Source: Bacteroidales bacterium (GTDB lineage: Bacteria; Bacteroidota; Bacteroidia; Bacteroidales; UBA7960). From it: DNA of 64,000 nt. The stretch covers positions 29,690-93,689 of the forward strand of contig JBHEOF010000001.1 of assembly GCA_046261715.1 (NCBI GenBank), written 5' to 3'. The notes below the pieces were generated by a model. That model did no database searches. It had not been told where the DNA came from and worked only from the letters and a program-made list of their open reading frames with translations. Position 1 is the stretch's first letter. Each line of letters starts with the position of its first letter. Positions 36,195-37,133 of the stretch are shown piece by piece. Made by a program: the position numbers and the translations under genes.

Positions 36195-37133
36195 ATGAAA
36201 AAGTTTTTTTCCCTGTTATTTATTCTTGGTTTTATTACAGTGTATGCACAGGAGCGCAATGCCGATCCTGCCAAACAATGGGATATTTCAAAAGAAAATG
36301 ATTGTGAAGGGTTTTCATTGAATTTTTTTGATGAGGAACTTGTAACAGCAGACACCCTGATCACAAAAATTTTAGGTGATGATATCCAATCATACAGTAT
36401 ATTGAATTCTCAGGCTGCTACCGGTCAAAATGCATCTGCGGGTATATTTAATGGTGGAAATGCTGCGGGAATTAACCTGGAAAGTGGAATAATACTGAGT
36501 TCCGGATTTATAAAAAACGTAACCGGACCGAATGAATATTCCGGAGTAACAGGAGTATTGAATCTGCCGGGCGATGAAGACATGGAAGCTCTTATACCCG
36601 GCTATGAAACCCTTGACGCAACCATACTTGAGTTTTCATTTATACCGGTTCATGACACACTCTTCATAAGCTTTGTTTTTGGATCTGATGAGTACAATGA
36701 ATGGGTCGGCTCACCTTACAATGATGTATTTGGATTTTTTCTGAATGGTGAAAACATTGCTTTGGTTCCTGAAACAAATGACAGAATATCAGTAAATAGT
36801 ATCAATAATTTCAGTAATAATAATTTTTTTATAAATAATGATGAGCGTCCAGGTCTGTTTTGCAATGAAATGGATGGTTTCACAACTTTACTGACTGCCA
36901 TAGGTATTGTTTCACCCGGTGAATTAAACCACATAAAGCTGGCCATTGCCGATGCCGGCGACAGAAGTTTCGACTCCTGGGTTTTTATCAAAAGTGGCGG
37001 TTTTACCGGCATTGATCCGGGTGATCCTGATGACGACGATCCGGTTCCATTACCCCTGAAAAACTGGCCCATATTTCTTATAATGATAATGATACTGGTT
37101 TTCACCTTCATTAAGATCAGAAGATCTGCATAA
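36195..37133 (+). CDS. secreted choice-of-anchor-L-like protein with a PEP-CTERM-like C-terminal sorting signal
   Basis: 312 aa. Signal peptide [19 protein letters not shown]. The core reads [46 protein letters not shown]...DG.T..L. The C-terminus is [39 protein letters not shown]. Confidence 0.7.
   Translation: [312 protein letters not shown]

Follow-up and report, generated by a model that had tools for sequence, protein, structure and literature searches.

In Bacteroidota, the display of proteins at the cell surface is usually ascribed to type IX secretion (by the T9SS) together with lipoproteins. Here we describe a candidate exosortase substrate and its putative sorting signal in a Bacteroidales bacterium. 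The locus lies in a stretch of 64,000 nucleotides (GenBank assembly GCA_046261715.1, contig JBHEOF010000001.1, positions 29,690 to 93,689 of the forward strand), hereafter the window, to whose own numbering all positions refer unless another locus is named. The gene at 36195..37133 (+) encodes a choice-of-anchor L protein of 312 aa and stands beside a short exosortase-family gene, which is followed by the gene of a small membrane protein, referred to below as the partner. We propose, with a probability that we put at roughly three in four, that the 312-aa open reading frame (ORF) specifies a Sec-exported surface protein whose last ~29 residues constitute a divergent tripartite sorting domain for the adjacent exosortase and its partner.

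The locus resembles the PEP-CTERM/XrtA (EpsH) system in several respects: the candidate substrates combine a Sec signal peptide with a C-terminal proline motif, a transmembrane (TM) helix and an arginine-rich end, the enzyme belongs to the same superfamily and has the conserved Cys, Arg and His, and one enzyme appears to serve many unrelated surface proteins. Furthermore, choice-of-anchor L homologues found elsewhere bear PEP-CTERM at the same position. In contrast to PEP-CTERM, the motif here is V-P-x-S-N-W-A and not VPEP, and, unlike XrtA, the sortase is short (187 aa), is accompanied by a partner of 175 aa, has no conserved exopolysaccharide (EPS) locus around it and occurs in Bacteroidales hosts. 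The PEP-CTERM models TIGR02595 and PF07589 gave no match at E <= 10 to the window tail, to the consensus tail or to six full-length members of the family, and the domains precomputed for the homologues P0026-P0110 do not include PF07589.

XrtH is the best named class for the window sortase and its model is likewise short, with 158 positions; unlike in the XrtH/IPTL-CTERM system, however, the sortase reaches only 34.6 bits against a cutoff of 86 and a partner gene is present. The IPTL-CTERM model TIGR04174 reported no match to the tail at E <= 10, with the proviso that HMMER filters may hide very weak matches. Its signal, which we take to be IPTLxxWG, presumably also places a proline and a tryptophan just before the helix, with a Pro-to-Trp spacing that differs by one residue from that of the tail described here. 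Within Bacteroidota, Flavobacterium johnsoniae depends on both XrtF and its associated protein (Fjoh_1448/1449) in order to colonise surfaces and to form biofilms (PMC10936215); neither a substrate nor a signal is known for XrtF, whose substrates are expected not to resemble PEP-CTERM proteins (PMC10936215). As in the XrtF system of the Flavobacteriia, a short Bacteroidota exosortase is encoded here beside a small membrane protein; unlike in that system, the partner has no NCBIfam match and a candidate signal with a set of candidate substrates is visible. The XrtF model TIGR04128 did not match the window sortase and gave E = 0.5 for a single distant homologue only.

The PGF-CTERM/ArtA system provides experimental support for the removal of a C-terminal helix coupled to lipid attachment (bioRxiv 10.1101/2023.06.07.544157). 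The window sortase shares with ArtA its superfamily and the same proposed Cys/Arg/His chemistry, whereas ArtA is archaeal, its motif is PGF and the window sortase scores 16.4 bits against an ArtA cutoff of 75. The usual route of surface attachment in Bacteroidota involves the T9SS C-terminal domain (Por_Secre_tail), a substrate of the outer-membrane processing protein PorU. That domain is folded, whereas the tail considered here consists of a TM helix and a basic end and bears no resemblance to it. Taken by their curated models, the PEP-CTERM, IPTL-CTERM/XrtH and XrtF systems do not include the present one, which, judging from sequence, would nevertheless work in the manner of a PEP-CTERM/exosortase system. 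At one locus (L156), a T9SS C-terminal-domain protein (Por_Secre_tail, weak match) is encoded at 2651-4957 (+), about 5 kb from a tail-bearing protein at 10001-10939 (+); both are encoded in one metagenome-assembled genome (MAG) and two surface-sorting routes therefore appear to coexist there.

The product of the window gene (36195..37133, +, ATG start) matches the NCBIfam model NF038133, choice_anch_L, at 3.8e-66 and 222.7 bits against a cutoff of 27. The passenger domain spans residues 71-270 (36405..37004, +) and covers profile positions 15-219 of 219. An N-terminal Sec signal peptide of the MKK...hydrophobic...AQ type, with a putative cleavage site, is predicted at residues 1-18 (36195..36248, +) from the sequence and from a helix at residues 2-16 in the AlphaFold2 (AF2) model. 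The AF2 model, for which 55 homologues were used, has a mean pLDDT (predicted local distance difference test) of 90.6; it comprises the signal-peptide helix, a beta-rich core with pLDDT >90 and a terminal helix at residues 291-311 with pLDDT 90-96, and its confidence is low in the linker that precedes this helix (mean pLDDT of 51 over residues 281-290, and below 50 at residues 285-288). A fold search of the passenger against the PDB returned nothing significant, the best hit having E = 2.8e-3 and a TM-score of ~0.2 among weak similarities of the beta-sandwich, CBM, MAM and PA14-like kind. A 100% identical protein from a Bacteroidales MAG (P0026) is deposited under the name 'choice-of-anchor L domain-containing protein [Bacteroidales bacterium]'. 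A preliminary description, made from the letters of the window only, had presented the 312-aa product as a protein with a signal peptide and a choice-of-anchor-L-like core, divergent from the exosortase gene with starts 185 bp apart; the ORF list, NF038133 and the AF2 model agree with the former, and the distance between 36010 and 36195 is indeed 185 bp.

The same description had divided the C-terminus into an acidic proline-rich linker, a VPLP motif, a 4-residue spacer, a hydrophobic helix and a KIRRSA cluster before the stop, and all of these parts are present in the sequence exactly as described. The linker, D274-P283 (37014..37043, +), is the part modelled by AF2 with low confidence, and in the homologues the same place is D/E/P-rich and variable. 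It is followed by the signature region V284-P292 (VPLPLKNWP; 37044..37070, +), by the hydrophobic TM helix I293-I306 (37071..37112, +), which lies within the AF2 helix 291-311, and by the basic cluster K307-I-R-R-S-A312 with the stop codon (37113..37133, +). The reading of these parts as a tripartite signal stands, and the choice of VPLP as its signature does not: V284 and P285 are not conserved, whereas P287, N290 and W291 are. The presumed spacer, LKNW (L288-W291), contains the conserved N290 and W291, as found by comparison with 171 distinct tails. The signature of the window copy is thus best read, from these alignments, as P287-x-x-N290-W291, and the predicted family motif as P-x-[SG]-N-W-[AP].

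Position frequencies were computed for 168 distinct tails anchored on the invariant proline, out of the 171 distinct tails compared, and gave the consensus V-P-[VIL]-S-N-W-A-[LI]-x-[IL]-G-x-x-L-I-x-x-F-x-x-x-R-[FY]-R-[RK]-x-x-COOH. In these 168 tails the motif residues are present at V 76%, P 100%, S 83%, N 91%, W 96% and A 89%, and conservation extends into the helix, with G 79%, L 88%, I 88% and F 86% at the positions G+9, L+12, I+13 and F+16 counted from the proline. The invariant proline stands 26-27 residues before the C-terminus in 147 of the 168 tails, and 26 residues before it in the window copy. Tail sets that are independent of the pattern used for the metagenome search agree with these values (P 100%, W 90-97%), and over all tail sets the ranges are N 80-91%, W 90-97%, S 66-91% and A 73-98%. 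P287 is also invariant in alignment A9. The window copy keeps P287, N290 and W291, as well as F303, which corresponds to F+16. A hydrophobic stretch with a basic cluster at the end is found in only one of the 158 window ORFs of at least 80 aa in six frames, namely the 312-aa protein. Furthermore, when a hidden Markov model (HMM) built exclusively from tails found beside sortases elsewhere, on proteins other than choice-of-anchor L, was run on 379 window ORFs, the window tail was recovered with E = 2.5e-5, the runner-up ORF reaching 4.5 bits.

The tail is common to ~60 full-length choice-of-anchor L homologues, so that it is kept in orthologues, whose lack of it the preliminary description had named as a ground for giving up the idea. 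It is not confined to this domain. In an exhaustive profile search of 1.84 billion representative proteins, 386 tail matches were obtained at E <= 1e-3; of the 153 representatives retrieved, 152 had the match ending 0-4 residues from the C-terminus and the other one 16 residues from it. A word-indexed protein search with the tail alignment yielded 8 short fragments and was uninformative, and the exhaustive search of representatives was used instead. In the 1.1 Mb of sequence surrounding sortases, all matches of the tail HMM fell at the extreme C-terminus, with true matches at >=18.8 bits and noise at <8 bits. When the 123 representatives with a length of >=150 aa were grouped by passenger similarity, 36 groups resulted, which carry 35 Pfam families, among them DUF11, Gly_rich_2, fn3, Big_1, NIDO, Laminin_G_3, MAM, GEVED, Kelch and Cohesin. 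Only a minority of the passengers are choice-of-anchor L proteins (2 of 153 representatives), and the most frequent passenger is a family of ~250 aa that has no Pfam match. All full-length tail ORFs beside sortases begin with a signal peptide of the MKK...hydrophobic...AQ type, and a crude regular expression detected a signal-peptide N-terminus in 88 of 116 Met-started representatives.

Conversely, the choice-of-anchor L domain is found with other endings, since further homologues end in PEP-CTERM (PF07589; P0105, P0111, P0113, P0118, P0126 and others), in a PEF-like tail, or in no tail. The homologues P0097, P0131 and P0145 have PEF-type tails, e.g. ...VPEFPTLALPVAMIFGFVFIAYSLRSRKEE, which are like the archaeal PEF-CTERM signal and illustrate, as far as sequence comparison can tell, that this domain may swap anchors freely. 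Criteria for tripartite C-terminal sorting signals have been set out by Haft (section 5 in bioRxiv 10.1101/2023.06.07.544157), and the tail agrees with criteria 1-8 in its location, copies, motif, TM segment, basic end, signal peptide, passengers and homologues. Several loci have more than one tail gene: three in loci L035 and L047 and two in L012, L045, L068 and L073, while L149, L153 and L111 also have three each; the 64-kb window contains only one. Runs of 2-3 tail genes (NIDO, choice-of-anchor L) are found far from any sortase in L149-L154, L160 and L168-L169, for instance at 8816-12023 of L149. Those of L149-L154 and L168-L169 lie just downstream of a sigma-54 response regulator/histidine kinase pair and a MacB-type ABC/RND-MFP cluster, hinting at co-regulated surface-protein islands.

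The candidate sorting enzyme is encoded by the short exosortase-family gene at 35447..36010 (-), which specifies 187 aa and has a GTG start. It passes the exosortase/archaeosortase signature TIGR04178 with 43.1 bits against a cutoff of 23, and Pfam PF09721 covers its C-terminal part only, with a score under the gathering threshold. The residues C95, R136 and H155 (codons at 35726-35728, 35603-35605 and 35546-35548, respectively, on the - strand) are invariant in 21 sortase homologues and correspond to the Cys/Arg/His triad proposed for exosortases and archaeosortases (bioRxiv 10.1101/2023.06.07.544157). With the TIGR04178 signature and the invariant triad, the protein looks competent as an enzyme. 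For this multi-pass membrane protein AF2 predicts a helical bundle (pLDDT 86.4) with a small beta element just ahead of Cys95. A comparison with the PDB gave neither a fold match (best E = 0.58) nor a sequence match, and we know of no solved exosortase structure with which the model could be compared. The sortase scored below the cutoff of every named class against which it was run, namely XrtH, XrtF, XrtM, XrtX, XrtY, ArtA, ArtB, ArtE, pacearchaeosortase and heimdallarchaeosortase.

The partner gene (34919..35446, -) is contiguous with the stop codon of the sortase gene and encodes a multi-pass membrane protein of 175 aa, a candidate accessory subunit. It is found directly downstream of the sortase gene in 73 of 75 loci, and the remaining two loci are truncated by the end of a contig. 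W25, W95, Q123 and D161 are invariant in the partner. The window partner has no NCBIfam or Pfam match, and a set of 23 partner sequences gave no relevant NCBIfam model at E <= 10; membership in a curated family, such as EpsI or the XrtF-associated protein, was rejected on this ground, and the idea that the partner is a degenerate or split sortase was rejected with an hhalign probability of 0.8%. Partners of this kind seem to form an obligate accessory family that has not been described before. Across the sortase loci, no genes other than those of the sortase and the partner are conserved. A conserved wider neighbourhood, such as an EPS locus, was looked for and rejected, the next commonest neighbour cluster being present in just 21 of 75 loci.

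One genome per GTDB species was scanned with two sortase peptide patterns, which gave 74 loci (L001-L074), all from Bacteroidales or Bacteroidota MAGs, or 75 together with the window. At least one tail gene lies within 10 kb of the sortase in 34 of the 75 loci. These amount to 42-45 tail ORFs altogether, in all of which the tail ends 0-6 residues from the C-terminus. The nearest tail gene is less than 500 bp from the sortase-partner module in 26 of the 34 loci, a number that was reached in 0 of 20,000 random placements. Moreover, when the neighbours of sortases were selected for having a signal peptide, a C-terminal TM helix and a basic end, 36 out of 38 carried the tail motif. The preliminary description had suggested that a recurrence of such a tail beside such sortases would define a new sorting motif. 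The tail does recur beside the same type of sortase, and on unrelated proteins; curated models (NCBIfam, Pfam) cover neither the tail nor the sortase subclass nor the partner, and a full-text literature search found no description of any of the three. Conservation, modularity and linkage to the sortase thus support the tail as a candidate sorting signal and the 312-aa protein as a candidate exosortase substrate.

The variants of the tail follow the sortase clades. The clade of the window sortase has the tail PLPL[KG]NWP, loci L008 and L020 have PVPLG[NQ]WAL, and tails without the tryptophan, IPYTNRA and IPFSNGVA, occur in the L061/L071 sortase subclade. Three MAGs have two sortase-partner modules each (L034/L061 in PHDN01, L032/L071 in JABMPH01 and L046/L056 in CALAZZ01), and in PHDN01 and JABMPH01 it is the second, more divergent sortases (L061, L071) that lie near the W-less tails, which suggests paralogous enzyme-signal pairs in one cell. 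The most divergent sortase of the scan (26% identity) is found in a Draconibacterium sp. MAG at 10013-10618 of L074; it is flanked on both sides by genes (8884-9702, +; 11392-11967, +) with the tail EPVP[FV]SI[YF]S..ALFALIGG..FKLRKRIFNI, and this tail may represent the signal of a sister class of sortases, itself a sister of the one described here.

Tail and enzyme also co-occur at a distance. Where a tail gene is not adjacent to a sortase, the same MAG has a sortase on another contig in 5 of 5 checkable cases (CAYJNJ01, CAZUDV01, CAYVQC01, RECE01 and CAZBGI01). In two of these MAGs, the tail loci L164 (RECE01000174.1) and L166 (CAZBGI010000038.1) are syntenic with 32820-39753 of the window and share with it the order polysaccharide deacetylase, CobW GTPase, choice-of-anchor L with tail, C69 dipeptidase and riboflavin synthase, and the sortase-partner module is missing from this place. 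In L164 an AraC-type regulator occupies the place of the module. Since the module is on another contig in these syntenic cases, it relocates relative to the substrate gene, and the deacetylase and CobW genes of the window are syntenic with the substrate gene and not with the sortase. In L011, whose sortase is 79% identical to that of the window, the orthologous choice-of-anchor L gene is split into ORFs of 199 aa and 129 aa (9217-9816, -, and 8782-9171, -, respectively); a frameshift, a pseudogene or an assembly error are possible.

On these grounds the following sequence of events can be proposed. After export via Sec, the protein would be kept in the inner membrane by its C-terminal helix, the basic cluster lying on the cytoplasmic side and the P-x-S-N-W motif at the outer face. 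The short exosortase, with Cys95, Arg136 and His155, and the 175-aa partner would then recognise this motif together with the conserved helix face. The sortase would cut the protein at the motif or close to it, in a Cys-dependent reaction, and the mature protein would be passed to an acceptor for display at the cell surface.

The sequences themselves show how the tail is built, that it is conserved, modular and strictly C-terminal, that it clusters with the sortase-partner module and varies with the sortase clades, and that both occur together in five MAGs; for the cleavage step, the transpeptidation, the acceptor, what the partner does and where the protein ends up, the proposal draws on the analogy of PEP-CTERM/XrtA and PGF-CTERM/ArtA. 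Several points weigh against this interpretation. The window tail is atypical in that K replaces S at +2, P replaces A at +5 and I replaces G at +9, and it reaches only 18.4 bits with the independent HMM. In 41 of the 75 sortase loci no tail gene is present within 10 kb, and a sortase is found in only 6 of 74 tail-centred metagenome loci; from the two figures it follows that adjacency is the exception, and from the latter that most substrates are dispersed, as in one-to-many systems, and the tail system is indeed mostly one-to-many. The link between tail and sortase rests partly on the five MAGs named above; the MAG of P0050 (CAYUQP01) is not among the genomes with a sortase locus in the scan and the contigs of P0054 and P0057 are not tied to a scanned genome, so that a sortase is shown for none of these three. 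Finally, tail and sortase are both confined to related Bacteroidales and, because they sit in related lineages, their co-occurrence is partly phylogenetic and confounded.

Some of these points can be turned into a different explanation, in which the tail serves as a plain anchor and is never cleaved, so that the protein stays tethered to the inner membrane, and the neighbouring sortase has other substrates. Since cleavage of the tail is inferred only by analogy, the window tail lacks several consensus residues and most tail genes are not beside a sortase, this explanation has something to recommend it, and we regard it as unlikely, though worth keeping in mind. A plain anchor needs neither an invariant proline and a tryptophan present at 90-97% at a fixed distance from the C-terminus across 36 passenger groups, nor a helix in which the G, LI and F positions are conserved. 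It would also leave without a reason that, among the 38 exported proteins near sortases that end in a TM helix and a basic stretch, 36 carry this exact motif, that the tail variants track the sortase clades, and that homologous passengers elsewhere have a recognised cleavable signal (PEP-CTERM) at the same position.

The sorting domain proposed here could also be real and be processed by another enzyme, such as a rhomboid-, CPBP- or Rce1-type protease, the exosortase and its partner being associated with it only functionally or regulatorily. Some tripartite signals do use a rhombosortase or myxosortases (bioRxiv 10.1101/2023.06.07.544157), and the linkage of tail and sortase was assessed at individual loci and in five MAGs. 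Around the loci, however, only the sortase and the partner are universally conserved, they are immediately adjacent to the tail gene in 26 of 34 loci and the tail variants follow the clades of this very enzyme, whereas the tail has neither the invariant Cys nor the Gly-Gly used by the other enzyme classes; we therefore give this possibility still less credence. That the locus is an ordinary, catalogued PEP-CTERM/XrtA or IPTL-CTERM/XrtH system which scores poorly is very improbable: NCBI at one time gave the homologue P0035 the name 'PEP-CTERM sorting domain-containing protein', XrtH is the top-scoring named class for the sortase, the IPTL-CTERM motif (presumably IPTLxxWG) also has a Pro and a Trp before the helix and P287 aligns with the Pro of PEP-CTERM homologues, but no PEP-CTERM, IPTL-CTERM or other sorting-domain model matches the window tail or the consensus tail at E <= 10, PF07589 is present in the precomputed domains of the PEP-CTERM homologues and absent from those of all tail-bearing ones, the sortase is under the cutoff for every named class (34.6 bits against 86 for XrtH) and an obligate partner gene accompanies it.

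As regards the remaining features of the locus, the sortase and substrate genes are separated by a divergent intergenic region of 184 bp (36011..36194), which presumably contains their promoters. It includes a single match to the Bacteroidetes-type motif TAnnTTTG at 36110-36117 (+); this motif is not enriched across the window (80 found against 76.5 expected), and the match is for this reason a lead only. An unsupported 74-aa ORF at 36140-36364 (-), which shares sequence with the beginning of the choice-of-anchor L gene on the opposite strand, is in all likelihood spurious. Elsewhere in the window there are three ordinary tRNA genes (Gly-GCC, Leu-TAA and Met-CAT; 40629-40864, +, and 61284-61356, -), beyond which an Rfam scan of the window detected no further family at threshold.

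The hosts of the system are Lentimicrobiaceae, Prolixibacteraceae/Draconibacterium-like and related MAGs; it is known from MAGs only, and the readable metagenome and MAG records give activated sludge, anaerobic digesters and sediments as sources. We think it rather probable that these uncultured Bacteroidales own a dedicated two-component surface-sorting machine, made of a short exosortase and its partner, with a signal of its own (V-P-x-S-N-W-A, a helix and RFRR), and with it a surface proteome of adhesin- or lectin-like proteins apart from T9SS cargo and lipoproteins. The locus offers a candidate enzyme-signal-substrate triad for a Bacteroidota exosortase class. An HMM of the tail can be defined from the 386 cluster representatives (E <= 1e-3) and would allow a better annotation of hundreds of 'hypothetical' MAG proteins, and the list of adhesin- and lectin-like passengers, together with the residues named above, would make the function of a Bacteroidota exosortase directly testable. 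If the proposal is true, no other Bacteroidota exosortase class would have had an identifiable set of substrates before this one, which could serve as a template for finding the substrates of XrtF.

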